Shown here piece by piece: positions 4,031-51,326 of a stretch of 63,000 bases of DNA. This DNA is from Candidatus Limnocylindria bacterium (GTDB lineage: Bacteria; Chloroflexota; Limnocylindria; P2-11E). The notes beneath the pieces are model-generated. The model had not been told where the DNA came from, made no database searches, and saw only the letters and a list, made by a program, of their open reading frames with translations. The position numbers and the translations under genes are program-made. The DNA is taken from NCBI GenBank assembly GCA_038200085.1, contig JBBPYG010000022.1, positions 1 through 63,000 of the forward strand, in the 5' to 3' direction. Every line of letters starts with the position of its first letter. Positions within the stretch are counted from its first letter, which is position 1.

Positions 4031-4342
4031 GTGATCGAACTGACCGCGGCGGCTGCCGCGAAGCTGCACGAGCTGCGTGACCCGGCGGGCGGGCAGCAGG
4101 TGCTGCGGCTCTGGGTCGCGGGGAAGACTTGCTGCGGTTACTCGTATGGACTCGCCTTCGACGAGTCGGCCGAGCCCGGGGACACGGTCGTGGAGCGTGA
4201 GGGCATCCCCGTCGCGGTGGACCCGCGCAGCCTGCCGCTGGTGAAGGACGCGACCATCGATTTCGTCGACGCGCTGATGGGCGCGGGCTTCACCGTCCGC
4301 GACGCGGCCGCCGGCGGCGGCTGCGCCTGCGGCCGACGGTAG
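4031..4342 (+). CDS. HesB/IscA/ErpA-family iron-sulfur cluster insertion protein
   Basis: 103 aa. LRLWVAGKTCCGYSYGLAFDE and C-terminal GGGCACG cysteine motif. Confidence 0.9.
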   Translation: MIELTAAAAAKLHELRDPAGGQQVLRLWVAGKTCCGYSYGLAFDESAEPGDTVVEREGIPVAVDPRSLPLVKDATIDFVDALMGAGFTVRDAAAGGGCACGRR

Positions 4343-15955: not shown

Positions 15956-16411
15956 ATGGCGACGCTTGCGGCGGGCGATCCCGCTCCGCGTTTCACTCTG
16001 ACCGACGACTCCGGCAACGTCGTGGACTCCGAGTCCATGCGCGGAAGGCGCTACGTCCTGTACTTCTATCCCGCCGACGACACGACGGGCTGCACCAAGG
16101 AGGCCTGCCAGTTCAACGACGATCTCGGCGAGTTCGACCGCGCCGAGGTGCCGGTGATCGGCGTTTCGCGCGACGACGCTCGCTCGCACCAGGCGTTCCG
16201 CGCGAAGTACGGTCTGCGGTTCCCGCTGACCACGGATGCCGACGGGTCCGTCCACGCCAAGTTCGGCGCGCGGGGCGAGCGGCCCGGCCGCGGCGAAGGC
16301 GTCATCCGTTCGACGTTCCTGATCGGCGCCGACGGGCGGATCGAACGCGCGTGGTCCGGCGTCAAGGCGGACGGCCACGCGAAGGACGTCCTCGCGGCGA
16401 TCGCCGCTTGA
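15956..16411 (+). CDS. bcp: Thioredoxin-dependent peroxiredoxin Bcp
   Basis: YVLYFYPADDTTGCTKEACQF peroxidatic Cys motif. ATG 15956 is preceded by GGCAGGGAGG. Confidence 0.9.
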   Translation: MATLAAGDPAPRFTLTDDSGNVVDSESMRGRRYVLYFYPADDTTGCTKEACQFNDDLGEFDRAEVPVIGVSRDDARSHQAFRAKYGLRFPLTTDADGSVHAKFGARGERPGRGEGVIRSTFLIGADGRIERAWSGVKADGHAKDVLAAIAA

Positions 16412-16698
16412 ACGTCGCCGGATCCGTGACGGCGCTCGCTGCCGCCGCGGGACTGGCGGCCGGGATCGCGGTGACCCGCCGCCTTCACGACGACCCGGAC
16501 GCCGGGCGCTGGGGCCGGCGGCTCGGCCGCACGCGATTCCGCTACGCGAACCTCCCCGTCGGGGGGACGGTGGCGCTCGCCGTGTCGAGGTTCATGCCGG
16601 GCGCGCTCGCGCGACCGGTCGTGGCGCTGGGCCTGGGTGCCCTGCTGGGTGCTGTCGGTTGGGGGCTCGTCGACCCTCTTCCGCCTCCGCCGCGCTGA
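16408..16698 (+). CDS. Possible small membrane protein (96 aa), TTG start overlapping the bcp stop
   Basis: TTGA overlap. Two hydrophobic stretches (ALAAAAGLAAGIAV, VVALGLGALLGAVGWGLV). Weak support only. Confidence 0.3.
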   Translation: MNVAGSVTALAAAAGLAAGIAVTRRLHDDPDAGRWGRRLGRTRFRYANLPVGGTVALAVSRFMPGALARPVVALGLGALLGAVGWGLVDPLPPPPR

Positions 16699-16750
16699 TC
16701 GCGGCACGCGGTCCGCGGATGGCCGGGCGCGGCAACCAACATCGCGCTGC

Positions 16751-16786
16751 GCGACCGAGGCACCGGTCCGCGTGACCGCCGGTCGC
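16751..16786. terminator. Compound GC-rich hairpin between convergent genes
   Basis: gcgaccg (16751-16757) pairs with cggtcgc (16780-16786). An inner pair cggtc/gaccg sits at 16764-16768 and 16774-16778. Confidence 0.3.
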
Positions 16787-16823
16787 GTCTCGCGTTGCCG
16801 GGGCGACCGCGCGTCGGCATTCC

Positions 16824-17345
16824 CTACCGCAGGCTGCTCCAGTTCAGGATGATCAGCGCCGTTCGGACGACAGCGATGATCGGTGGGTAGGGCAGGGAAA
16901 AGCCGATGCAGAACACCGCGCCGACGGGAACCAGTGCCAAGGCGAGAATGCCGCCGCTCTGGTGGCTGTTCCACAGAAGCCAGCCGGCGATCCCTTCGAG
17001 AACGCAGACGACCAGGAAAGCGCAGAGAAGCGGGATCGACGTCATGATCCCGAACCGCTCGAAGTAGCCGCCGCCGTAAGCGGGAAAGCCGAACAGCAGC
17101 GGCACCCCGCCACCGCTCATCGGGCTCCTGATGGCCGGGATGTTGGGCAGGCCGAAGCCGATCGCGGTGAGCAGACACAGCGCCGCGGCCACCTGGATCG
17201 AAGGGTTCAGCGAGCGACGCGCACCGGCGGTCCCGACCGGGATCGGCACCGGACATGTGTACTCTCGATGGCGTCCGGGTAGAAGGCGTGGACGAACTTG
17301 TCGCCCATGCCATACGGACCGCTTGACCGCGCGTCCATGCCACAT
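16824..17345 (-). CDS. Integral membrane protein, hypothetical (start uncertain)
   Basis: Four predicted hydrophobic helices (AAALCLLTAIGFGL, IPLLCAFLVVCVLEGIAGWLL, GILALALVPVGAVFCIGF, IIAVVRTALIIL). The N-terminal 30 aa are Arg-rich, so the true start may be near 17249. Confidence 0.45.
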   Translation of the reverse strand: MWHGRAVKRSVWHGRQVRPRLLPGRHREYTCPVPIPVGTAGARRSLNPSIQVAAALCLLTAIGFGLPNIPAIRSPMSGGGVPLLFGFPAYGGGYFERFGIMTSIPLLCAFLVVCVLEGIAGWLLWNSHQSGGILALALVPVGAVFCIGFSLPYPPIIAVVRTALIILNWSSLR

Positions 17346-17509
17346 GGGCGGGCTGGGCCGGGGCTGGGCGCGCTGCCTGCCCCACAGGTCGCTACAACGG
17401 CCCCAGGACGCGCGCCGTCGGCTCAGCGGATCGTCAATGACTACGGGCCTCCGCGGCGGACGACCGATCTTCGGCCGGCTCGGCGGCGTTCATCTTCGAC
17501 TTATGGGAC

Positions 17510-17740
17510 CTAGAACTCCTCCGCGTGCCCTTCGCGGCACATCGCGAAACTGCGGCGGCGGAAGTAGCCTCGTTGGTCTTCACGCATGAATCCGTGATAC
17601 GTCCGCGGCTGGTCGTCGAGCGGGCACACGGTGGTTTCCGCCATATTCCTGTCGATGTCGTTATTCCATTCGCTCCACCCGGCATCGGCCAGCTCCTGGA
17701 TCACGTCGTGGAAGTGTTGGATCTCTGGTGCGCTCTTCAC
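17510..17740 (-). CDS. Hypothetical protein (76 aa), third gene of the HIRAN cassette
   Basis: GTG 17740 forms a GTGA overlap with the stop of the preceding ORF. Protein-like composition (EIQHFHDVIQELADAGWSEWNNDIDRNMAETTVCPLDDQPRTYHGFMRED). Confidence 0.45.
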   Translation of the reverse strand: MKSAPEIQHFHDVIQELADAGWSEWNNDIDRNMAETTVCPLDDQPRTYHGFMREDQRGYFRRRSFAMCREGHAEEF

Positions 17741-17967
17741 TGGACCGCTCCGACCGGCGATCGGCCGGGCCGCCGTCGCAGCCGAGGCGACCGCGAGGGC
17801 GCTGCGCGGCCAGCGGTCGGGACGCGCTGCCACTCATGGTCGCCGTCTGCGCCACCGCGGCAGTGCGCCCAACGGCGGTCGAATATCGTGATCTCGCGTC
17901 CTGTCGGGACGAGCGGAGGCAGGTGATCCAAGCGAACGCACTCGAACTCGATCAGATCGCCGAACAT
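17737..17967 (-). CDS. Hypothetical protein (76 aa; alternative TTG start at 18009), second gene of the HIRAN cassette
   Basis: MFGDLIEFECVRLDHLPPLVPTGREITIFDRRWAHC. It begins 5-47 nt after the HIRAN stop. The C-terminal third is Arg/Pro-rich and less convincing. Confidence 0.4.
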   Translation of the reverse strand: MFGDLIEFECVRLDHLPPLVPTGREITIFDRRWAHCRGGADGDHEWQRVPTAGRAAPSRSPRLRRRPGRSPVGAVQ

Positions 17968-18013
17968 GCCGTCTGCTTCACGCCGTTCTGCTTGGAACGT
18001 CGCTGACAAGATC

Positions 18014-18508
18014 TCAGCTCGCCGACACCGTTTGAGTGGCTCGGCTGCTTCTTGGGCGCTTGTCGCGCCAGGGACGCGCGATCGTGGTCACCGTGCGGAC
18101 CGGGCCTGCGGCCGCCTCGAGGGCCGAAAGACACTCGTCAGGCGTTCCGAGGTCGAGCACGATGGAAAATATCGGGCCACTGCGGCCCTCGAGTCGGGGG
18201 GCGTCGAGTCGGCCGCCTTCGACGATCCTTGCGGCGCACCGCACCTCGCACCCGAGCTTGCGGATGCGCTCGGCCACCGCGCGGAACTCGATCGCGGTGC
18301 CGCGGTCGAGGTGCCCGACATGGACGCTGTCGATGACGATACAGACGGCGTTGCGGTCGTACGGGTTGTTGAGATCAGGGACGAGGACCGCCCGCCGGAC
18401 CATCGGCCCGTCGCGAGCGAGTCCCTCCAGCCCTTCCAGGTAGAAGGATTCGCCTGCCACCTCAGTATCCCGACCGCCTGGAAGATCGCGGGGTGTGGAA
18501 CTCTGCAT
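18014..18508 (-). CDS. HIRAN-domain protein
   Basis: VAGESFYLEGL...AVLVPDLNNPYDRNAVCIVIDSVHVGHLDRGTAIEF matches the bacterial HIRAN signature (VxGxxxY...ePdNpyDpnAv.V...vGyl.r). Strong RBS AAGGAGAA 5 nt before the ATG. Confidence 0.8.
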   Translation of the reverse strand: MQSSTPRDLPGGRDTEVAGESFYLEGLEGLARDGPMVRRAVLVPDLNNPYDRNAVCIVIDSVHVGHLDRGTAIEFRAVAERIRKLGCEVRCAARIVEGGRLDAPRLEGRSGPIFSIVLDLGTPDECLSALEAAAGPVRTVTTIARPWRDKRPRSSRATQTVSAS

Positions 18509-18641
18509 TCGGATTCTCCTTACGCGATGGCGCGCGCCGCTGCGCTGCGCGGCTGTGAAGTGCCAGGCCCAGCTCTCACAGGTCCGGACCTACGGCCGCG
18601 ACTTATGCACCCGAGAGCTAGGAGGCTTACAGTGCGGCCAA

Positions 18642-18875
18642 CTAAGGCCGGGCGGGCTTAGTCGGTCTACCCACCACTAATCCCGTCCGAGCCTTAGCTC
18701 CAAGATGCCGGGTCCGGTGAATGGCCCGGGTCTCCGCGGTAACTTCGCACCCGTCACGGTCGCAGACCCAAAGCATTCGGCCATCGATCTCGCGAATCGT
18801 CCACGAGTGCTCGCCGTGGAGCCTTGCGCGCTTCCAGACGCCATCGGGGACGGGCGTGACGGAGCGAAGAATCAT
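18642..18875 (-). CDS. Hypothetical protein (77 aa)
   Basis: ATG 18875 preceded by GAGGGGG. SWTIREIDGRMLWVCDRDGCEV. Has its own predicted promoter. Confidence 0.45.
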   Translation of the reverse strand: MILRSVTPVPDGVWKRARLHGEHSWTIREIDGRMLWVCDRDGCEVTAETRAIHRTRHLGAKARTGLVVGRPTKPARP

Positions 18876-18932
18876 CGAGGCTACCCCCTCGAGGTTCGGA
18901 GCTCGGCTCGTAACCGAGTCGCACCTTGGTTG

Positions 18933-18960
18933 AACGTAGACCTGGCAAGGAGAATGTCAA
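18933..18960 (-). promoter_or_regulatory. Predicted promoter TTGACA-16 nt-TACGTT (minus strand)
   Basis: Plus-strand tgtcaa at 18955-18960 and aacgta at 18933-18938. Confidence 0.35.
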
Positions 18961-19264
18961 GCAATCGAACACACGAACGGTGACTCTACAAAGACGGCGT
19001 CGGAGCGGCCTAGGAGAAGCGCTCGGCCACCGCCCTGACTCCTTCGTCACAGCAGACCGCTCGGTCGCGGGAGAGTGGAGACTCGCCGACGGTTGTCACG
19101 TCGGCGGCCCTTCGTTCCGGTGTCATAGCACCTCGGTCGCACCGACCGGCTGCAAGCTCGCGCCGATATCTCTCGTGATGGAGGCGGACGCGGCCGCGCC
19201 GCCCGCGGTAGACCATAGCGGGGTGTTATCCGCGCGATGCGACCGGATCGCGCCCTTTTCGTTC

Positions 19265-19278
19265 CGAACATTTGTTCG
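19265..19278. promoter_or_regulatory. LexA (SOS) box CGAACATTTGTTCG
   Basis: Perfect palindromic match to the Gram-positive/actinobacterial Cheo-type box CGAAC-N4-GTTCG. Located 49 nt upstream of the ubiX ATG, at the edge of the HIRAN islet. Confidence 0.65.
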
Positions 19279-19326
19279 CTAGGAAAGGCACACGCTTATG
19301 CGGAATGCTAGGGTCGTCGGCCTGCG

Positions 19327-31564: not shown

Positions 31565-31852
31565 CTACGTCGCGATCGCCCCCGTCAGCTGGCGCATGCG
31601 GTTGGTGACCTCGCCCGCGATGCGGCTTGTGCGCGCCAGTCCCACCAGGGTGAAGTCGATGCCGGCCGCGGACAGCTCCTCGTACCCGAGGCCCTTGTAA
31701 AGGCGGTTCCCGGCCACGTAGCACATCTCGTCATAGAGTTTTGGCCAGCCGACGCCCCGCCGCTCGAAACAGAACGCGATGAACTCGATCGCTACCGTGC
31801 CCGCACGCTCGCTCGTCAAACCTTCGTCCCCCCCGCCGCGAAGGCGAATCAT
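31565..31852 (-). CDS. Hypothetical protein (95 aa)
   Basis: Globular composition (IEFIAFCFERRGVGWPKLYDEMCYVAGNRLYKGLGYEELSAAGIDFTL). No family recognised. Confidence 0.5.
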   Translation of the reverse strand: MIRLRGGGDEGLTSERAGTVAIEFIAFCFERRGVGWPKLYDEMCYVAGNRLYKGLGYEELSAAGIDFTLVGLARTSRIAGEVTNRMRQLTGAIAT

Positions 31853-31958
31853 TCGGGCGATGGCGCGTCATGGGCAAGGTCGTTTGTCCACCACCTTCTC
31901 CACAGGTTCATCCACCCGTCGGCGAGAGCTGTCCACACGTTTTCCACGGTGTTGTCCA

Positions 31959-33161
31959 CTAGCGTGTCCGGCGGTCCGACAACCGTCGCCTGATGCGCGC
32001 TTCGCGGGCGGTCGCGCGTCCCAGCGCGTCGGCGCCGAAGCGGGAGCGCACGGCGTCGAGGGCGGCGTTCAGGCGCGAGGTGCGCGCCTGCTCGAAGAGC
32101 CCGAGCTGCGTTCCCGCCACGAGCCCTGAAACGCTCACCCCGATCAGGCGCACCGGGCTCACTCGGCCGGCCGCGCGGTCGGCCGCGAGGACGTCCCGAA
32201 GGAGCGTGCGGGCGGTGCGATGGATCTCCACCGCGTCCGCGGTCGGCTCGGCCAGCGTGCGCTGGCGGGTCCGCGTCTCGAACGGCGCGACCCGGAGCTT
32301 CAGCGTGACCGTGTGCCCGCGCACCCCGGCGTCGCGCAGCCGCCGGGCGGTCCGCTCCGCCAGGCCGAGGAGCGTCGCCTCGATGAATGCCGCGTCGCCG
32401 GTGTTGCGCTCGAAGGTGTACTCGTGCCCGACCGACTTCGCCGCCTCCTCCGGCGTGACGGCCGAATCGTCGATCCCCCTGGCCCGGTCCCGGATCGCCC
32501 GGCCGTGCTGGCCGAACCGCGCCTCGAGCTGGGCCGCGTCCGTCGCGGCGAGGTCCCCGATCGTGCGCAGCCCCCAGTCCTCTAGCACCTCGCGGGTCTT
32601 CGGCCCGACGCCCCAGAGGCGCGCGAGCGGCAGTGGTGCGAGGAAGGCCGCCTCTCCACCGGCGGGCACGACCACGAGCCCGTCCGGCTTCTCGAGGTCC
32701 GACCCGATCTTCGCGCAGAGCTTGTTCGCGGCGACTCCGACGGATAACACCAGGCCCAGCTCCGTGCGAACCCGGGCTTTGAGCGCCCGCGCGATCGCCA
32801 CAGCGCCGCCGAACAGGTGCAGGGTCGCGGTCACGTCGAGGAACGCCTCGTCGAGCGAGATCGGCTGCACCAGCGGCGTGTACTGGCCGAAGAGCGCCAT
32901 CACCGCATCCGACGCTCCGCGGTAACTCTCGTGGTCGCCCGGCACGAAGATGCCGTCCGGGCAGAGCCGACCCGCCATCGCGAGCGGCATCGCCGAGCGA
33001 ACGCCGAAGGCTCGCGCCTCGTACGAGGCGGCACTGACGACGCCACGCTCTCCCGGCGCGCCGCCGACGATGACCGGCCTGCCGCGGTACTCGGGATGAT
33101 CGCGCTGCTCGACCGACGCGTAGAAGGCGTCCAGGTCGCAGTGCAGGATCGCGCGAGTCAT
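31959..33161 (-). CDS. dinB: DNA polymerase IV (Y-family translesion polymerase)
   Basis: ILHCDLDAFYASVEQRD...ISLDEAFLDVT...SVGVA.NK..AK..SD..KPDG. ATGA overlap with the upstream alkZ-like gene. Confidence 0.95.
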   Translation of the reverse strand: MTRAILHCDLDAFYASVEQRDHPEYRGRPVIVGGAPGERGVVSAASYEARAFGVRSAMPLAMAGRLCPDGIFVPGDHESYRGASDAVMALFGQYTPLVQPISLDEAFLDVTATLHLFGGAVAIARALKARVRTELGLVLSVGVAANKLCAKIGSDLEKPDGLVVVPAGGEAAFLAPLPLARLWGVGPKTREVLEDWGLRTIGDLAATDAAQLEARFGQHGRAIRDRARGIDDSAVTPEEAAKSVGHEYTFERNTGDAAFIEATLLGLAERTARRLRDAGVRGHTVTLKLRVAPFETRTRQRTLAEPTADAVEIHRTARTLLRDVLAADRAAGRVSPVRLIGVSVSGLVAGTQLGLFEQARTSRLNAALDAVRSRFGADALGRATAREARIRRRLSDRRTR

Positions 33162-34291
33162 CGCGGAAGATCGACCGCGTGGTCGCGGGCGTCGGGCTCG
33201 ACGAAGCGCACCAGCCGCTCGCCCTCTTCCACGAGCGTCGCCCGATACGCGCGCGCGACGCCGTCGAAGGGTGAGAGCACCAGCCGCGCCCGGCGTGCCT
33301 TCTGCCGCAGGATCTCCCACGTGCCGGCGACCATCCCGTCCACGAGGAAGGTCGGCCGGATGTCGCCGTTCGTGCCGATGAGGAGTCCGCGGTAAGGCTC
33401 GGGCAGCATGCGATCCCGCGCGGTGGGGGCGTACGCGAGCAGGGTGCTGTCCCACTTCGGCAGATACCGCGGAGGCGCCGGCTCACCGGGATCCGGCCGC
33501 GGCGCCGATGCGAGGTCGTACAGCGTCGTGCCGCGCTCGTCCTCGAAGATACACAGCCGGGGCGCGAGCGCGTCGAGCGCCGGGGCCAGCGCCCGCCCCA
33601 GCCGGATGCCGCTCCACGACGCGATGTCCGCGCGCGACGCCGGCCCGAAGGCGCCGAGGTACCGCTCGACGACGGCCGCCACCGCCTCGTCCGCCGCGGG
33701 CAGCGCGAACCGCCCGAGCCACGCGCGCGCGTCGACGTAGCGGCCGCTCCCGAAGTACCGCCAGGTGCCGCTCGGAGGGGCGCTCAGCACCCAGCCGTGC
33801 AGGTCGGCGATCATCCACAGGGCGTAGCGCCCCTCGAGCAGATCCTCCGGCGCCAGCCCATCGAGTGCCGCCCGTATCTCCGTCCACGAGCGCGGCTCAT
33901 GCGCCTGCGCCAACACCCGTTCTCGGATGTCGCCGATGTCGACGCCGGCGGCGTTTTCAGCGATCGCCGCCGGCACCCGGCGTCCGGCCGTAGTCGCGAC
34001 GGCGTAGTTCGGGTACTCGCGTGCCGTCACGAGGTGCAGAGTCAGGCGCATCAGCGTGGCCTTCACCACGGTCCGTTGCTCGAGCTCGCGCTGAAGGTCG
34101 TCGATCGCGAAACGTTCGAGCCGGCTCCACAGCGCAAGGTAGGGGGAGGGCGACCACTGCGCCTGGATCCCCGCGAGGCGGTCGATCGCGGTCAGGACGT
34201 CGAGCGGCTCGCGCCGCAGAAGGAATTGTCGCGCGAGGAGCGCACGGTTCAGCGCGCGACGCGAGAGCACCGGGCGATCCGGCCGCGCCAC
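33158..34291 (-). CDS. Winged-helix HTH_42/DUF1006 protein, AlkZ/YcaQ-like interstrand-crosslink DNA glycosylase
   Basis: LSRRALNRALLARQFLL...LAGIQAQ (Q-Phi-Q motif of the AlkZ-like clade), 377 aa. Starts 1 nt after the lexA stop. Confidence 0.75.
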   Translation of the reverse strand: MARPDRPVLSRRALNRALLARQFLLRREPLDVLTAIDRLAGIQAQWSPSPYLALWSRLERFAIDDLQRELEQRTVVKATLMRLTLHLVTAREYPNYAVATTAGRRVPAAIAENAAGVDIGDIRERVLAQAHEPRSWTEIRAALDGLAPEDLLEGRYALWMIADLHGWVLSAPPSGTWRYFGSGRYVDARAWLGRFALPAADEAVAAVVERYLGAFGPASRADIASWSGIRLGRALAPALDALAPRLCIFEDERGTTLYDLASAPRPDPGEPAPPRYLPKWDSTLLAYAPTARDRMLPEPYRGLLIGTNGDIRPTFLVDGMVAGTWEILRQKARRARLVLSPFDGVARAYRATLVEEGERLVRFVEPDARDHAVDLPR

Positions 34292-34292
34292 G

Positions 34293-34898
34293 CTATGACA
34301 GGCGGCGGATGACCCCGATGACCTTGCCCTGGATCCGCACGTCGCGAGCGTAGATCGGCTCCATCGATCCGTTCGCCGGCTGGAGGCGAACGCGCTCGCG
34401 CTCGCGGTACAGGCGCTTGAGGGTCGCGGTGTTGTCCTCGAGGAGCGCGACGACGATATCGCCGTCGCGCGCGGTGTCCTGCTGCTGGATCACGACGTAG
34501 TCGCCGTCGTCGATGTGGTCCTCGATCATCGACTTGCCTCGCACTCGAAGGACGAATGTCTCCCGTCCCGCCGCGAGTTCCCCTGGCACGGATAACGTCT
34601 CGCTTTGATCCTCGTACGCGTAGATCGGCTGGCCCGCGGCGATCTCTCCGATGATCGGAGCGATCACGGCGCGCCCACCGAGCGGCGCCGGCAGCGTCAG
34701 CGCGCGCGACCGTGTGGCCTCCTTCTGGAGGCGCCCCTCGCGCTCGAGCTTGGTCAGGTGGTGGTGAACGGCCGACGTCGAGGCGAGGCCGACCGCCTCG
34801 GCGATCTCCCGGACGCTCGGCGGGTACCCCCGGTCCTCGACCGTCTCGCGGATGAACTCGAGGATGCGCTCACCGCGCTGCTGGTCCTGCTTCGTCAC
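34293..34898 (-). CDS. lexA: LexA repressor
   Basis: YPPSVREIAEAVGLASTSAVHHHL.KLE..G HTH, AAGQP cleavage site, and VRGKSM...VALL.D..ATLKR (Ser/Lys dyad). GTG start. Confidence 0.95.
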   Translation of the reverse strand: MTKQDQQRGERILEFIRETVEDRGYPPSVREIAEAVGLASTSAVHHHLTKLEREGRLQKEATRSRALTLPAPLGGRAVIAPIIGEIAAGQPIYAYEDQSETLSVPGELAAGRETFVLRVRGKSMIEDHIDDGDYVVIQQQDTARDGDIVVALLEDNTATLKRLYRERERVRLQPANGSMEPIYARDVRIQGKVIGVIRRLS

Positions 34899-34904
34899 CC
34901 CGCG

Positions 34905-34933
34905 ACCATACCGAACGTCTGTTCACCTGTCAA
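34905..34933 (-). promoter_or_regulatory. lexA promoter TTGACA-17 nt-TATGGT with a LexA box (CGAACGTCTGTTCA, 34912-34925) in the spacer; the start codon lies 6 nt after the -10
   Basis: Plus-strand tgtcaa at 34928-34933 and accata at 34905-34910. GAAC-N4-GTTC at 34913-34924. Predicted leaderless or near-leaderless transcript. Confidence 0.7.
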
Positions 34934-36529: not shown

Positions 36530-36976
36530 GTGCGCGTGATCCTCAAGCGCGAGGTCACCGGGCTGGGGCGGCCGGGGGAGATCAAGGACGTCGCCGACGG
36601 CTATGCCCAGAACTTCCTCGTGCCGCGCGGTCTCGCCGTCGAGGCGAGCGCCGGCGAGCTGCGGCGGATCGCGCAGCAGCGCGCGAGCCAGAAGGCGAAG
36701 GACGAGCGGGCGCAGGTCGAGGCCCAGGGGCTCGCGAAGCGCCTCGAGGCGGTGACCCTCGTGTTCAAGCTGAAGGCAGGCGAGCAGGGCAAGACGTTCG
36801 GCTCGGTCACCACGAAGGACGTCGCGGAAGCGCTCCAGCGCGAGGCCAACGTCAGCGTCGACAAGACGAAGATCCACCTCGAGGAGCCGCTTCGCACGCT
36901 CGGGGTGCATCGCGTCGAGGTGCGCCTCGCGCCCGAGGTGCGCGCGCAGCTCACGGTGGCGGTCGAGCCGGCCTGA
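36530..36976 (+). CDS. rplI: 50S ribosomal protein L9
   Basis: MRVILKREVTGLGRPGEIKDVADGYAQNFLVPRGLA. Confidence 0.95.
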   Translation: MRVILKREVTGLGRPGEIKDVADGYAQNFLVPRGLAVEASAGELRRIAQQRASQKAKDERAQVEAQGLAKRLEAVTLVFKLKAGEQGKTFGSVTTKDVAEALQREANVSVDKTKIHLEEPLRTLGVHRVEVRLAPEVRAQLTVAVEPA

Positions 36977-36978
36977 CC

Positions 36979-38319
36979 TCAGGCTTCGTGCGTCTCGCCG
37001 AGGTCACGGAAACGCGTGAGCTCGGACTGGAAGTGCAGATCGATCTCCGCCGTCGGTCCGTTGCGGTGCTTGGCCAGCTTCAGCCGCACGACGCGGTCCT
37101 CGCGGTCCCGGTGGTCCTTCTGCCAGAGGAAGAGGACCAGGTCGGCATCCTGTTCGATCGACCCGCTGTCGCGGAGGTCGGACAGCGTCGGCTCTGGACC
37201 GCGCGTCTGGATCTGACGAGATAGCTGGGACAGCGCGACGATCGGCACCTCGAGCTCGCGCGCGATCGCCTTGAGTGACCTCGTGATCCGCGCGACCTCC
37301 TGCACGCGGTTCTCGTCATCGCCGACGCCCTCGATCAGCTGGAGGTAGTCGATGACGATGAGGTCGAGGCCGCGCTCCGTCTGGAGGCGCCGCGACTTCG
37401 CGAGGATGTCGGTCACGGTGAGGCGGCTCGACTCCTCGATGTAGATCGGCGCCTGCTGGAGCTGGCTCGAGGCGCCGCCGATCGACTTCATCTCCTCGAG
37501 CGACAGCCTGCCCCGCCGCAACCGGTTCCCGGGGATCTCGGCGGTCATCGACACCAGGCGCTGCACGACCTGCATTTCGCTCATCTCCATCGAGAAGACC
37601 GCGCACGTGCGGCCCTGGACCAGCCCTGCCTCCGCGACCATGCACAGCGCGAGGCTCGTCTTGCCGAGGCCCGGCCGGCCCGCCACAACGATGAGGTCCG
37701 AAGGCTGAAGTCCTCCGGTCTTCTGATCGAGGGTGTCGAGGCCGGTCCTGATGCCGAGCCCGCGATCCTCTACGCGCGCGCTGATCTGCTCGGCGTAGCG
37801 GTGCACCGCGACGTCGAGCGGCACGACGTCGCGGTGGAGCGATGACTCGCTGACGGCGAAGAGGAGATCGCCCGCGTCGCGCACCGCCCGCTCCGCGTCG
37901 TCGCGCGTCAGGGCCAGGCGGGCGATCTCGTTCGCCGCCCCGATGAGCCGGCGCAGGAGCGCGGTGCGCTCGACGATCGCGGCGTACGTCTCCGCGTGCG
38001 CGACGGTCGGGACGTACTGCATCAGGCCCACCAGGAACTGCGCGCCGCCGACGGCCTCGAGGTCGCCTCCCGCCGACAGCTCCGCCTGCACGCTCTGGAA
38101 GCCGATCGCCTCGCCGCGTCCGTCGAGGCGCTCGATCGCGCGGAGCACCGTGCGGTGGGCGTCGCGGGAGAGGTCCGCCGGCGCGACCCGCCCGCGCACG
38201 ATCTCCGCGTAGATGTGCGAGTCGATCAGCAGCGCCCCGAGCAGCGACGCCTCGGCCTCGGGGTTCTCCGGCGGCGGCCGCGGCTCCCGGCGGTCGCGTG
38301 CGCCCACATCGAGGGTCAC
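36979..38319 (-). CDS. dnaB: Replicative DNA helicase DnaB, downstream copy of a tandem pair
   Basis: PENPEAEASLLGALLID, GLQPSDLIVVAGRPGLGKTSLAL, LIVIDYLQLI, SLKAIARELEVPIVALSQLSR, SGSIEQDADLV. GTG 38319 overlaps the stop of the upstream copy (GTGA). Confidence 0.9.
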   Translation of the reverse strand: MTLDVGARDRREPRPPPENPEAEASLLGALLIDSHIYAEIVRGRVAPADLSRDAHRTVLRAIERLDGRGEAIGFQSVQAELSAGGDLEAVGGAQFLVGLMQYVPTVAHAETYAAIVERTALLRRLIGAANEIARLALTRDDAERAVRDAGDLLFAVSESSLHRDVVPLDVAVHRYAEQISARVEDRGLGIRTGLDTLDQKTGGLQPSDLIVVAGRPGLGKTSLALCMVAEAGLVQGRTCAVFSMEMSEMQVVQRLVSMTAEIPGNRLRRGRLSLEEMKSIGGASSQLQQAPIYIEESSRLTVTDILAKSRRLQTERGLDLIVIDYLQLIEGVGDDENRVQEVARITRSLKAIARELEVPIVALSQLSRQIQTRGPEPTLSDLRDSGSIEQDADLVLFLWQKDHRDREDRVVRLKLAKHRNGPTAEIDLHFQSELTRFRDLGETHEA

Positions 38320-39641
38320 AGCGGGATGCCCTCGTCGCTCGCACGGCTGAAGAAGCGCGCCTGCTCGCTCTCGAAGAACAGCTCGAACCGGCCCGTCGGC
38401 CCGTTCCGGTTCTTGGCGACGCTGCCGTGGACCGGCTTCGGCGCGCCCGCCGGCGTCTCGTCCTTGTCGCGCCACAGCATCAGCACGACGTCGGCGTCCT
38501 GCTCGATCGCACCCGACTCGCGCAGCGTGGAGAGCTTCGGCTCAGCCCCAATGTCGCCGGCGGCGCGCGATAGCTGCGAGAGCGCGATGACGACGACGTT
38601 CAGCTCGCGCGCGAGCGACTTGAGGTTGCGAGTGATCGTCGCGATCTCCTGCACGCGGTTCTCCTCGTGCTCGCCGGTCCGCATCAGCTGCAGGTAGTCG
38701 ACGACTATCACGCCGAGGGGACGGTCCGGCCGGCTGGCGCGGCGCGCCTTGGTGCGCAGCTCCATGATCGAGATGCCGGGCGTGTCGTCGAGCAGCACTG
38801 GCAGCCCCATGAGCGCGGCGGCGGCGTCCGTGTCGACGACGTTCTGCGTCCGCATCGCCAGAAGATCGGTGCCGCTGTTCTGCGCGAGGAAGCGCGCCAC
38901 GATCTGTTTCGCGTCCATCTCGAGGGAGAAGACCAGCGTGTTCGTCCCGCGCCTCGCGATGTGATACGCCATCGCCAGGCCGAGGCTCGTCTTCCCGACG
39001 GCCGGGCGCGCGCCGATCACTACCAGGTCCCCGGCGGTGAAGCCCTCGGTGTACGCGTCGATCTCGGGGAAGCCGCTCGCGATGCCGCTGACCTCGAAGG
39101 GGTGCTCCATGCGCTCGGTCAGGTGCTCGTAGTGCTGGTCGAGCGCGCGCCGGATATGTCGCAGCTGGCTCGCGAAGGCTTCGTCGCGGAGCGCGAAGAT
39201 CCGCTGCTCGGCGCGGTCGAGCGTCAGCGCCATGTCGGTCGGCTCGTCGTACGCGTCGGCAGCGATCGCCGTAGCGGCGGCGAGCAGCCGCCGCAGGAGG
39301 GACCGGCCGCGCACCGCGCGGGCGTGGCGTTCGATCTCGACAGCCGTTGGCACGGCATCGACGAGCTCGCGCAGGTAGGCGGCGCCGCCGACGCGGTCGA
39401 GCTCCTCGCGGCGCGCGAGCTCGACCTGGATCGTCAGAGGGTCGATGCGCTCCCTGCGCTCTAGCAGCGCCTGCGCCGCGGCGTAGATCCGCTGGTGGCG
39501 GGCCTCGTAGAAGTCGTCGACGCGCAGCAGGTCGGCGACGCGGAAGATCGCGTCGCGGTCGATCAGCAGCCCGCCGACGACGTGCCGCTCCGCTGCGGGG
39601 TCGTGGGGCGAGGCGCGCTCGGCCGCGGTCTCCAGCGTCAT
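38316..39641 (-). CDS. dnaB: DnaB-family replicative helicase paralog, upstream copy of the tandem pair
   Basis: PHDPAAERHVVGGLLID, GFTAGDLVVIGARPAVGKTSLGL, VIVVDYLQLM, LKSLARELNVVVIALSQLSR, SGAIEQDADVV. Confidence 0.9.
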   Translation of the reverse strand: MTLETAAERASPHDPAAERHVVGGLLIDRDAIFRVADLLRVDDFYEARHQRIYAAAQALLERRERIDPLTIQVELARREELDRVGGAAYLRELVDAVPTAVEIERHARAVRGRSLLRRLLAAATAIAADAYDEPTDMALTLDRAEQRIFALRDEAFASQLRHIRRALDQHYEHLTERMEHPFEVSGIASGFPEIDAYTEGFTAGDLVVIGARPAVGKTSLGLAMAYHIARRGTNTLVFSLEMDAKQIVARFLAQNSGTDLLAMRTQNVVDTDAAAALMGLPVLLDDTPGISIMELRTKARRASRPDRPLGVIVVDYLQLMRTGEHEENRVQEIATITRNLKSLARELNVVVIALSQLSRAAGDIGAEPKLSTLRESGAIEQDADVVLMLWRDKDETPAGAPKPVHGSVAKNRNGPTGRFELFFESEQARFFSRASDEGIPL

Positions 39642-39647
39642 GGAGCT

Positions 39648-39676
39648 GATTTAGAACACCCGTTCGACCGTGTCAA
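39648..39676 (-). promoter_or_regulatory. dnaB-pair promoter TTGACA-17 nt-TAAATC with a LexA box (minus-strand CGAACGGGTGTTCT, 39653-39666) in the spacer; the ATG lies 6 nt after the -10
   Basis: Plus-strand tgtcaa at 39671-39676 and gattta at 39648-39653. GAAC at 39654-39657 and GTTC at 39662-39665. Same architecture as the lexA promoter. Confidence 0.6.
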
Positions 39677-39927
39677 GACCTTCCCCCAAACATGCGGGCA
39701 TTCCCGGCAGCAGCCGACCGCTGCGACTTTCCTCGGCCGGGAACGCTAGGCGGGGGCGGCGCCGAATGCAGCAGACTTGCCTACAGCGGGTTGGCAGACA
39801 TACCCACAGGTTCCAGCGGTTCTCCCAGCGCCGTGCACCGTCGGTCCACCGCCGAAGCCTGGTGACGCCTCCCGCCGTCGATCCAGTGGCCCGGGCGCGC
39901 GAAAGAGATGATCCCTGGAGGTCCGAC

Positions 39928-40836
39928 GTGGCGCAGCGCTTTCTCGTGACCGGCGGTGCCGGCTTCGTCGGCAGCGCCGTCGTCGACCGCCTTCGCGCCG
40001 GCGGAGCCGAGGTGCAGGTCGTCGATGATCTCGTCACCGGCGACCGCGCGAACCTCGCCCCCGGCGTCGTCCTCCACGCAGTCGATATCGCCGACGCGGC
40101 GGCACTCGCGGGCGCGCTGGAGGGCGAGCGCTTCGACGCGGTCGTTCACTGCGCGGCGCGGACGAAGGTCGTGCAGTCCGTGGCCCAACCCGAGCTGTAC
40201 CGGCGCGTGCTCGTCGACGGCACACGGAACGTCGTCGAGGTCGCGCGGCGCGCGAACGCGTCGGCCTTCGTCAACTTCTCGACGGGTGGGGCGCTGTACG
40301 GAGAAACGCCGAGTTGCGCGAGCGAGGACGCCCCCGCGCGGCCCGAGTCGCCGTATGGCGCGTTCAAGGAAGAGGCGGAGCGCATCGTCGCCGACTCCGG
40401 CCTGGTAGCGACCACGCTGCGCCCGGCGAACATCTACGGTCCACGGCAGCGCACGGACCTCGAGGGTGGCGTCATCGCGGTCTTCTTCGGCTGCTGGCGG
40501 AGGGGCGAGCCGTTGACGGTGTTCGGCGATGGGAGCGCGGAGCGTGACTACGTGTACGTGGGCGACGTCGCCGAAGCGGTGGCGGCCGCGATCGAGCGCG
40601 CGGCGTTGAGCACGTACAACGTCGGCACGGGGATCGCGACGTCGGTCGACCAGGTCATCGCCGCCATGACGTCGCTGCTGGGGCCGCCCGCCGGCGTGAC
40701 GCACGCGCCGTCGCGCGGCGGCGAGCTCCAGCGGTCGTGCCTCGACGCGTCGAAGGCGGCCCGCGATCTCGGCTGGAAGCCACGGACCTCGCTCGGCGAA
40801 GGACTGCGGCTCACCGCCGCCTCCACGAGGGCGTAG
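39928..40836 (+). CDS. NAD-dependent epimerase/dehydratase (UDP-glucose 4-epimerase-like SDR)
   Basis: FLVTGGAGFVGSAVV, SPYGAFK (YxxxK). GTG 39928 preceded by CTGGAGG. Confidence 0.85.
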   Translation: MAQRFLVTGGAGFVGSAVVDRLRAGGAEVQVVDDLVTGDRANLAPGVVLHAVDIADAAALAGALEGERFDAVVHCAARTKVVQSVAQPELYRRVLVDGTRNVVEVARRANASAFVNFSTGGALYGETPSCASEDAPARPESPYGAFKEEAERIVADSGLVATTLRPANIYGPRQRTDLEGGVIAVFFGCWRRGEPLTVFGDGSAERDYVYVGDVAEAVAAAIERAALSTYNVGTGIATSVDQVIAAMTSLLGPPAGVTHAPSRGGELQRSCLDASKAARDLGWKPRTSLGEGLRLTAASTRA

Positions 40837-50474: not shown

Positions 50475-51326
50475 ATGGACCTGTTCGAGAGGCAGGCGCA
50501 GCTGCAGAATCTCTTCCACGCGAACCCCGTCGACGCCGCCTACGCCCAGGGGACGCCGTCGGGGCGGCGGATCGCGGGCGCGTACGCCGACCTGGATGTC
50601 GCCCTCCTGCTGCTCGACAAGATCAAGGTGAACGAGTTCTTCGACTACCAGGTCTATTTCGTCAGCGAGCTCTCCAAAGCGCTCGATACCGAGGGTCTCG
50701 ACGTCGTGATCCTGAACCAGTCCTCGCTGCTCCAACGCGCCCAGGTCATCAAGAGCTGGTCGCTCCTGTACCAGCGCGACCGCAAGCGACGGGTGGAGTT
50801 CGAGGCGCGGGCGGTGCTCGAGTACCTCGAGTTCCAGAAGTACGACGAGGCGCAGTCGCGCGCGCTCGCCGAGCGGATGCGGACGGAGCGCTTCGCGATC
50901 GACGGCGACTACGTTCGCCGCCGCCTCGCCCGGCTCCGCGAATACGTCGTCCTGCTCACCGACCTGCGCGCGATCGACCGTGCGAAGTTCCGATCCGATC
51001 CCAAGTTGTACGGCCTCGCGCAGTGGTACCTCCAGCAGGCCGTCGAGCTGCTCTTCGGGACCGGGGCGTACCTCGTGATGGCGCTCGCGCTGCCGAAGCC
51101 CGAGGCCTACCACGACATCCTCGACTCGATCGCCCAGCGCGGGATCATCGAGAAGAGCCTCGGCTACCGCCTCGAGCACTTCGCGAACATGCGCAACCTT
51201 CTCGCGTACGACCGCGAGCAGACGGATATCGACGAGGTCTACGGGCACATCCAGTCGCGCGTGGCGGACATCGCGACCTTCGCCGAGCAGGTCGAGACGT
51301 TCCTGGGAGCGTCCGCCGACTCATGA
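50475..51326 (+). CDS. Fused minimal nucleotidyltransferase (MntA-like) and HEPN/DUF86 (HepT-like) protein
   Basis: N-terminal half: GT-x11-DLDVALLL plus LDVVILN (NTase G[ST]...DxD...D pattern). C-terminal half: YHDILDSIAQRGIIEKSLGYRLEHFANMRNLLAYDREQTDIDEVY resembles the DUF86 block ...gfRNilvHeY..id.e.vy, but with His replaced by Tyr. Starts 6 nt after the purQ stop and overlaps the purL start (ATGA). Confidence 0.7.
   Translation: MDLFERQAQLQNLFHANPVDAAYAQGTPSGRRIAGAYADLDVALLLLDKIKVNEFFDYQVYFVSELSKALDTEGLDVVILNQSSLLQRAQVIKSWSLLYQRDRKRRVEFEARAVLEYLEFQKYDEAQSRALAERMRTERFAIDGDYVRRRLARLREYVVLLTDLRAIDRAKFRSDPKLYGLAQWYLQQAVELLFGTGAYLVMALALPKPEAYHDILDSIAQRGIIEKSLGYRLEHFANMRNLLAYDREQTDIDEVYGHIQSRVADIATFAEQVETFLGASADS

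Follow-up and report, generated by a model that had tools for sequence, protein, structure and literature searches.

The dnaB1-dnaB2 gene pair

The window, by which the whole 63-kb stretch of Limnocylindria (Chloroflexota) DNA under analysis is meant, carries on its minus strand two adjacent genes for full-length paralogues of the replicative DNA helicase, dnaB1 (38316..39641, 441 aa) and dnaB2 (36979..38319, 446 aa), each of which encodes the Pfam domains DnaB and DnaB_C and matches the model TIGR00665. Both proteins score above the TIGR00665 equivalog cut-off of 385.25 (DnaB1, 424.8; DnaB2, 436.5) and below the cut-off of 498.65 that applies to the phage_DnaB model (339.6 and 329.7, respectively), and both reach about 310 bits against the solved DnaB structures that match them best, 2r6a and 2vye, the score of DnaB1 with the DnaB chain 2r6a being 314 bits. 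The paralogues are 36% identical and have all catalytic motifs in common, Walker A, Walker B, SQLSR and LR(E/D)xG being invariant. The GTG start of dnaB2 overlaps the TGA stop of dnaB1 by four nucleotides (GTGA), and the two genes therefore form a translationally coupled operon; a 4-nt (A/G)TGA overlap is found in the window and in 44/44 related loci in which the limits of both genes were clear.

The rplI gene (36530-36976, plus strand) converges on dnaB2. This adjacency, together with the class-wide chromosomal synteny described below, suggests a housekeeping role, and on the basis of rplI adjacency and the equivalog scores the housekeeping helicase is very probably to be found in this pair. 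A search of the literature for duplicate or paralogous dnaB genes turned up no account of a chromosomal tandem DnaB pair, and the conserved pair of paralogues is a more unusual part of this locus than its LexA-type regulation.

Some DnaB1 orthologues are interrupted by inteins. These lie after DnaB1 residue 376 in the related loci L043, L046, L047, L049 and L052-L058, giving proteins of ~860 aa (642 aa in L054), and in L054 DnaB2 contains an intein as well. The protein database lists a Pfam intein-splicing domain for the intein-bearing DnaB1 orthologues; the copies in the window are without one.

Upstream of dnaB1, and divergent from it, lies a gene for an NAD-dependent epimerase (39928-40836, plus strand), which starts with GTG at 39928 behind GGAGG. 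The lexA operon, described below, lies on the far side of rplI, and the rest of the window is occupied mainly by genes for purine biosynthesis, transport and cell shape, with no further repair genes; an Rfam search of the window returned one tRNA only. Within the purine-biosynthesis run, which is otherwise unbroken, after purS and purQ-like genes, an ORF at 50475-51326 (plus strand) encodes a HepT-like ribonuclease domain, HepT being the toxin of the HepT/MNT-type pair.

Predicted promoter and operator elements upstream of dnaB1

Direct reading of the minus strand immediately upstream of dnaB1 reveals a -35 hexamer TTGACA (39671..39676), a 17-nt spacer, cggtcGAACgggtGTTC (39670-39654), a predicted -10 hexamer TAAATC (39648..39653), six nucleotides, agctcc (39647-39642), and the ATG (39639..39641), which is also the predicted 5' end of a leaderless mRNA. 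The spacer contains a match to GAAC-N4-GTTC, GAACGGGTGTTC on the minus strand at 39654..39665, that is predicted to be a LexA operator (an SOS box of the Gram-positive type). The initial annotation had recognized this succession of TTGACA, a 17-nt spacer with GAAC-N4-GTTC, TAAATC, 6 nt and ATG, and the reading bears it out; the spacer that it spelled out had the correct length in the description, while its letters included one surplus 't' after GTTC. The box is a perfect inverted repeat whose N4 has a purine as its first base and a pyrimidine as its last. It extends from -24 to -13 (the A of the ATG being +1) and thus overlaps the predicted core promoter, filling the end of the spacer and abutting the -10 hexamer, so that a bound LexA dimer would occlude the promoter.

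The -10 hexamer had been described as TAnnnT-like. This is right for the A at position 2 and wrong for position 6, which is C instead of T, leaving a loose resemblance. The imperfect -10 is a real weakness of the dnaB1 promoter in this genome. A generic sigma-70 promoter scan called the lexA promoter and did not call that of dnaB1 because its rule needs T at -10 position 6; this miss is not counted as absence of a promoter, since the orthologues clearly mark out the predicted -10 position. The start codon itself is fixed by an in-frame TAA at 39653-39651, 12 nt upstream of the ATG, and by the Pfam DnaB N-terminal domain, which begins at residue 11 of DnaB1; there is therefore no alternative dnaB1 start. 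No Shine-Dalgarno sequence or purine-rich tract was found in the sequence read upstream of the ATG.

The lexA operon

A gene for the repressor LexA (201 aa) lies at 34293..34898 on the minus strand. The protein contains a winged-helix DNA-binding domain (LexA_DNA_bind, PF01726) and an S24 peptidase domain (Peptidase_S24, PF00717), and scores 201.1 with TIGR00498, for which the cut-off is 110.95. The Ala88-Gly89 cleavage site, Ser123 and Lys161 are all present, and, judged from these features, the protein is a cleavable LexA equivalog. The downstream gene (33158-34291, minus strand; Pfam AlkZ-like) encodes an alkZ-like DNA glycosylase and is separated from lexA by 1 nt. It overlaps, as ATGA, with dinB (31959-33161, minus strand; Pfam IMS, IMS_C and IMS_HHH), which encodes a Y-family polymerase and is a canonical SOS gene. 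Thus, lexA-alkZ-dinB is one operon behind the lexA SOS box. In several related loci, two alkZ-like copies stand in tandem.

The lexA promoter (34905..34933, minus strand), established by direct reading and by the promoter scan, consists of TTGACA (34933-34928), the 17-nt spacer ggtGAACagacGTTCgg with the box GAACAGACGTTC (34924-34913), TATGGT (34910-34905), the six nucleotides cgcggg and the GTG (34898). Its layout is the same as that of the dnaB1 promoter, as had been pointed out in the initial annotation. Related lexA promoters repeat the pattern without exception (39/39): TTGACA, 3 nt, GAACAnnnGTTC, GG and T(T)Annnn, with the box in the spacer. In Gram-positive-type lineages, GAAC-N4-GTTC is established as the motif of LexA, and autoregulation of lexA by way of it is the rule (PMC3323433).

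Perfect boxes in the window

In the 63-kb window, GAACNNNNGTTC is matched perfectly exactly three times, at 19266, 34913 and 39654, and two of these sites occupy the same position in a promoter, in agreement with the manual count of the initial annotation. Shuffled versions of the window contain a mean of 0.61 perfect boxes. Boxes with one mismatch are not enriched in the window (19 found vs 18.5 expected). The probability that a perfect box falls by chance inside one given 17-nt spacer, calculated from base composition, is ~5e-5. A weight matrix made solely from the lexA boxes of other genomes was run over the 16-mers of both strands of the window, and its three best sites were the three perfect boxes, with scores of 22.9 (lexA), 22.5 (third box) and 12.0 (dnaB), the next best 16-mer scoring 9.2.

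The third perfect LexA-type box (19266..19277; motif scan and matrix score 22.5), which lies within CCGAACATTTGTTCGC, is found in different surroundings. It stands 22 nt inside a strain-specific segment: the near-identical strain contigs L061 and L062 match the window only from 19300 rightwards, and the ~3 kb to the left of the box (context 16400-19300) has lower GC and a poor codon-position bias. Searches of the adjacent minus-strand ORFs against Pfam and PHROGs gave nothing convincing, the only match being a sub-threshold one to HIRAN (18014-18508, minus strand; E = 0.0013). In a metagenome scan queried with UbiX, which is encoded next to the box, this box was not conserved at ubiX.

Conservation of the box across Limnocylindria

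A scan of species-representative genomes with DnaB1 yielded 59 loci, with 70-95% identity, nearly all of them labelled Chloroflexota or Ca. Limnocylindria; the DnaB1 homologue search returned only within-class orthologues among the 120 matches listed. In four of the loci (L013, L022, L025 and L040), the dnaB-lexA synteny is that of Limnocylindria in full and the deposited MAG is named Saccharimonadales, Udaeobacter or Bathyarchaeia; these contigs have probably been mis-binned.

Conservation of the box upstream of dnaB in relatives, which the initial annotation had named as a check on its proposal, proved to be complete: a perfect GAAC-N4-GTTC is located directly upstream of dnaB1 in 59/59 genomes (the window and all 58 loci with upstream DNA), a count of species that share ancestry and that therefore overstates the number of independent events. 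Around the invariant core, the sequence has turned over extensively. Among the 59 boxes, the N4 spacer exists in 27 versions and the flanks in 58, and in an alignment anchored on the box the information per position is 2.0 bits for the eight core bases, 0.54 bits for the N4 spacer, 0.81 bits for the six bases after the box and 0.23 bits for the upstream flank. This turnover of N4 and flanks argues against mere inheritance of the box. The distance from the box to the dnaB1 start is held as well, being 11-13 nt most often.

The boxes are also confined to two places. The 611 kb of related loci contain 97 perfect boxes where ~5 are expected from base composition; 58 of these are found at dnaB1 and 39 at lexA, and no perfect box was found away from the dnaB1 and lexA promoters in the 611 kb. 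These figures decide the case of a chance occurrence in a GC-rich genome. The window considered alone would lend this explanation some support, because 3/100 window shuffles also reach three perfect sites, but it is refuted by the presence of the box in every one of the orthologous promoters and by the lack of any off-target site in the related loci, and its probability is practically nil.

Symmetry within the spacer of the box bears on the identity of the protein that would bind it. N4 opens with a purine in 59/59 of the dnaB1 boxes and closes with a pyrimidine in 56/59, and the B. subtilis-type LexA consensus, CGAACRNRYGTTYC, has this purine...pyrimidine pattern inside its N4. A different helix-turn-helix dimer, encoded elsewhere, might instead bind the palindrome at both lexA and dnaB, and the flanks do differ by promoter class, with (T)A/C-GAAC...GTTC-TA at dnaB and nT/C-GAAC-ATCC-GTTC-GG at lexA. 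The TA that follows GTTC at dnaB is present there, however, because the -10 element overlaps the site, and the R...Y symmetry of N4 matches that of LexA boxes. The motif is moreover found in all 39 of the lexA promoters, and autoregulation of LexA through this motif is the Gram-positive rule (PMC3323433). Binding by a regulator other than LexA is accordingly considered very improbable.

Gene order is retained along with the box. The arrangement in which the epimerase gene diverges from dnaB1-dnaB2, which converges with rplI and is followed by lexA-alkZ, is kept in all related loci. The epimerase gene is thus a conserved divergent neighbour throughout, and synteny cannot separate it from dnaB1 as the target of a LexA that binds to this site to control the epimerase gene or both genes. 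Position is more informative: the box lies most often 11-13 nt from the dnaB1 start, between the -35 and -10 elements of that gene, and ~260 nt from the start of the epimerase gene, which has its own Shine-Dalgarno sequence, and the remaining intergenic sequence is poorly conserved. There is thus only a very slight chance that the epimerase gene is a target, and dnaB1 is the preferred one.

An apparent GC-rich hairpin was also observed ~20-55 nt upstream of the dnaB box in L021, L022, L025, L029, L031 and L053-L057. Its putative stem varies between species in a compensatory manner (for example, CCGCCGCG...CGGCGG(AGG) vs CCTCCCGG...CCGGGAGG).

Promoter strength and probable leaderless transcription

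Comparison of the 59 orthologous dnaB1 promoters indicates that the elements flanking the box vary in strength in an inverse manner. The -35 element is TTGACA in 19/59, all 19 of which are without T at -10 position 6, as in the window; a TAnnnT -10 is present in 35/59, and these are without a good -35. No promoter has both TTGACA and TAnnnT, the split (TTGACA only : TAnnnT only : neither : both) being 19 : 35 : 5 : 0. Such an inverse relation is the compensation expected of functional promoter elements, as these are predicted to be, with the qualification that the two states largely follow clades. The dinucleotide TA follows GTTC directly in 56/59, and the commonest hexamers at this position are TAGACT, TAACTA, TAACTG and TAGAAT.

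The gap between the -10 element and the start codon is 4-7 nt in 37/51 orthologues. The leaderless layout is not universal, as dnaB1 is preceded by a leader of 25-40 nt with GGAGG in ~8 related species. Within the window, TANNNT is rare (111 occurrences in 126 kb, counting both strands) and yet at least nine genuine genes, lexA, mscS and purA among them, have it 5-8 nt ahead of their start codons; start codons with this arrangement include those at 4031, 34898, 35071, 35852, 40870, 57055, 59189 and 59257. Leaderless promoters therefore appear to be a general habit in this genome, and a leaderless dnaB1-dnaB2 transcript is likely here.

DnaA-box-like elements

Sequences resembling DnaA boxes were observed on both sides of the dnaB-lexA-dinB segment. 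At 31884-31960, the 107-bp gap that separates the stop of dinB from the start of a 95-aa ORF (31565-31852, minus strand; no match to any family) is filled by six DnaA-box-like 9-mers in the same orientation (TTGTCCACC, TTCTCCACA, TCATCCACC, CTGTCCACA, TTTTCCACG and TTGTCCACT), most of them spaced at 11-12 bp. One to three near-consensus DnaA boxes lie past dinB in 7/8 related loci that reach this far, the exception being L034.

The second group is found in the intergenic region between dnaB1 and the epimerase gene, where L002-L059 have DnaA-box-like sites at a distance of 120-185 nt from the dnaB LexA box, on its upstream side. Sites with at most one mismatch to TTGTCCACA number 134 in 607 kb, and 72 of them fall in this intergenic region, which makes up 2.5% of the sequence; at least one such site is present in the gap in 51/58 loci. 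The counterpart in the window, TGTGGGTAT (39800-39808), is weak, having degenerated to two mismatches. Through this cluster, DnaA may control dnaB or the epimerase gene. A role of these arrays as oriC was considered and set aside: the 286-bp dnaB1-epimerase gap has 66% GC without an AT-rich stretch and there is no GC-skew switch, while the array past dinB fills its 107-bp gap and leaves no space for an unwinding element.

Proposed mechanism of regulation

The evidence presented above is best explained if the dnaB1 box is a LexA operator by which dnaB1-dnaB2 is directly repressed and, upon DNA damage, derepressed, the transcript being most likely leaderless; we consider this highly probable. 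Direct repression of the dnaB pair by LexA had been proposed in the initial annotation, and comparison of genomes now lends it strong support through the invariance of the box (59/59), its exclusivity to two promoters in 611 kb, the rank of the dnaB site (third) with a matrix built from lexA boxes and the presence of a LexA that is predicted to be cleavable. What the analysis shows directly is the anatomy of the site, its invariance and exclusivity, an intact LexA and the structure of the operons; that LexA binds and represses the promoter, that damage induces the pair, where transcription starts and what purpose this serves are inferred in the following model.

In the proposed circuit, the LexA protein encoded 4.7 kb away would bind to the 12-bp palindrome at 39654-39665, and the dimer positioned at -24 to -13 would block RNA polymerase. 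DNA damage would lead to RecA-stimulated self-cleavage of LexA (Ala88-Gly89, with Ser123/Lys161) and to release of the dnaB1 promoter. More bicistronic dnaB1-dnaB2 mRNA would then be made, most likely with its 5' end at the ATG or one or two bases from it, and dnaB2 would be translated from this mRNA via coupling through the GTGA overlap. Repression of an essential helicase would be workable only if it is partial, and the lower score of the dnaB operator (12.0 vs 22.9 for that of lexA) would fit leaky basal expression of a pair to which the housekeeping helicase very probably belongs. The purpose of derepression would presumably be to supply extra helicase for reloading the replisome at collapsed forks after damage.

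The same lower score, and the presumed essentiality of the helicase, can also be read to mean that LexA binds to the site with little damage-inducible effect on dnaB, either as a constant brake or because the site is weak or serves for titration. ChIP-seq of M. tuberculosis provides examples of LexA sites bound without apparent regulation, and an ambiguous peak at dnaB (PMC3381160). On the other hand, eight core bases that are invariant in 59 species at a promoter-occluding position imply selection for binding, and the LexA protein here appears to be cleavable. Binding with so little consequence is thus regarded as improbable, and damage-inducible control of dnaB1-dnaB2 by LexA is the preferred interpretation.

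A broader reading, which is put forward tentatively and is rather unlikely to hold, is that Limnocylindria run replication, or at least post-damage reloading of the replisome, with two obligatorily co-expressed, diverged and catalytically intact DnaB proteins, and that supply of the pair is a core SOS output conserved to the same extent as lexA autoregulation. The two proteins might assemble into one hexamer of mixed composition, or restart or loading might be the special task of one of the rings, and the circuit may be integrated with DnaA via the conserved arrays of DnaA boxes on either side of the dnaB-lexA-dinB segment.

More generally, Limnocylindria very probably have a class-wide tie of helicase supply to the DNA-damage response, as suggested by the distribution of the box. 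If so, selection would have made the supply of helicase a core output of the damage response in these soil and freshwater bacteria, an abundant class that is uncultured, and the locus would offer a testable case of how bacteria couple reloading of the replisome to damage signalling.

Comparison with known SOS systems

SOS regulons are usually described as comprising genes for repair, mutagenesis and cell division. Helicase genes under LexA control are familiar from E. coli, in which uvrD, dinG and ruvAB are induced to process damaged forks; these encode helicases of the accessory or repair type and have the operator CTG-N10-CAG, unlike the box at the Limnocylindria dnaB pair. To our knowledge, dnaB does not belong to the LexA regulon of E. 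coli or B. subtilis. Within the phylum, the LexA protein of Dehalococcoides ethenogenes, a member of a different class, reportedly binds the Gram-positive motif, which places it in the same motif family as that of Limnocylindria, and its targets are said to be lexA and uvrA, not dnaB.

Close parallels in promoter architecture are the lexA genes of B. subtilis and M. tuberculosis with their Cheo box, which share with the Limnocylindria sites the GAAC-N4-GTTC repeat, the R...Y pattern in its spacer and the overlap with the core promoter. The LexA proteins of these species likewise have the Ala-Gly cleavage site and the Ser/Lys dyad. The Limnocylindria dnaB1 promoter differs from such autoregulated lexA promoters in that its target is a replicative helicase operon and not a repair or mutagenesis gene, and in that its mRNA is predicted to be leaderless.

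The placement of dnaB outside the classical SOS regulons by the initial annotation stands for E. coli and B. subtilis, but not for M. tuberculosis (PMC3381160, PMC8151990). In the latter species, a ChIP-seq study of LexA reports a LexA motif at the promoter of dnaB, where the stricter peak caller did not confirm the peak, and notes that dnaB is induced by DNA damage in a partly RecA-dependent manner (PMC3381160); a later study includes dnaB among the SOS-box promoters (PMC8151990). Control of dnaB by LexA is therefore not unprecedented, the M. tuberculosis case being weak and ambiguous. The M. tuberculosis gene (Rv0058) likewise has a LexA motif of the GAAC-N4-GTTC type at the promoter of the replicative helicase. 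It is, however, a single gene with a predicted motif, whereas in Limnocylindria two coupled paralogues stand behind a perfect box in the promoter spacer that is invariant throughout the class.
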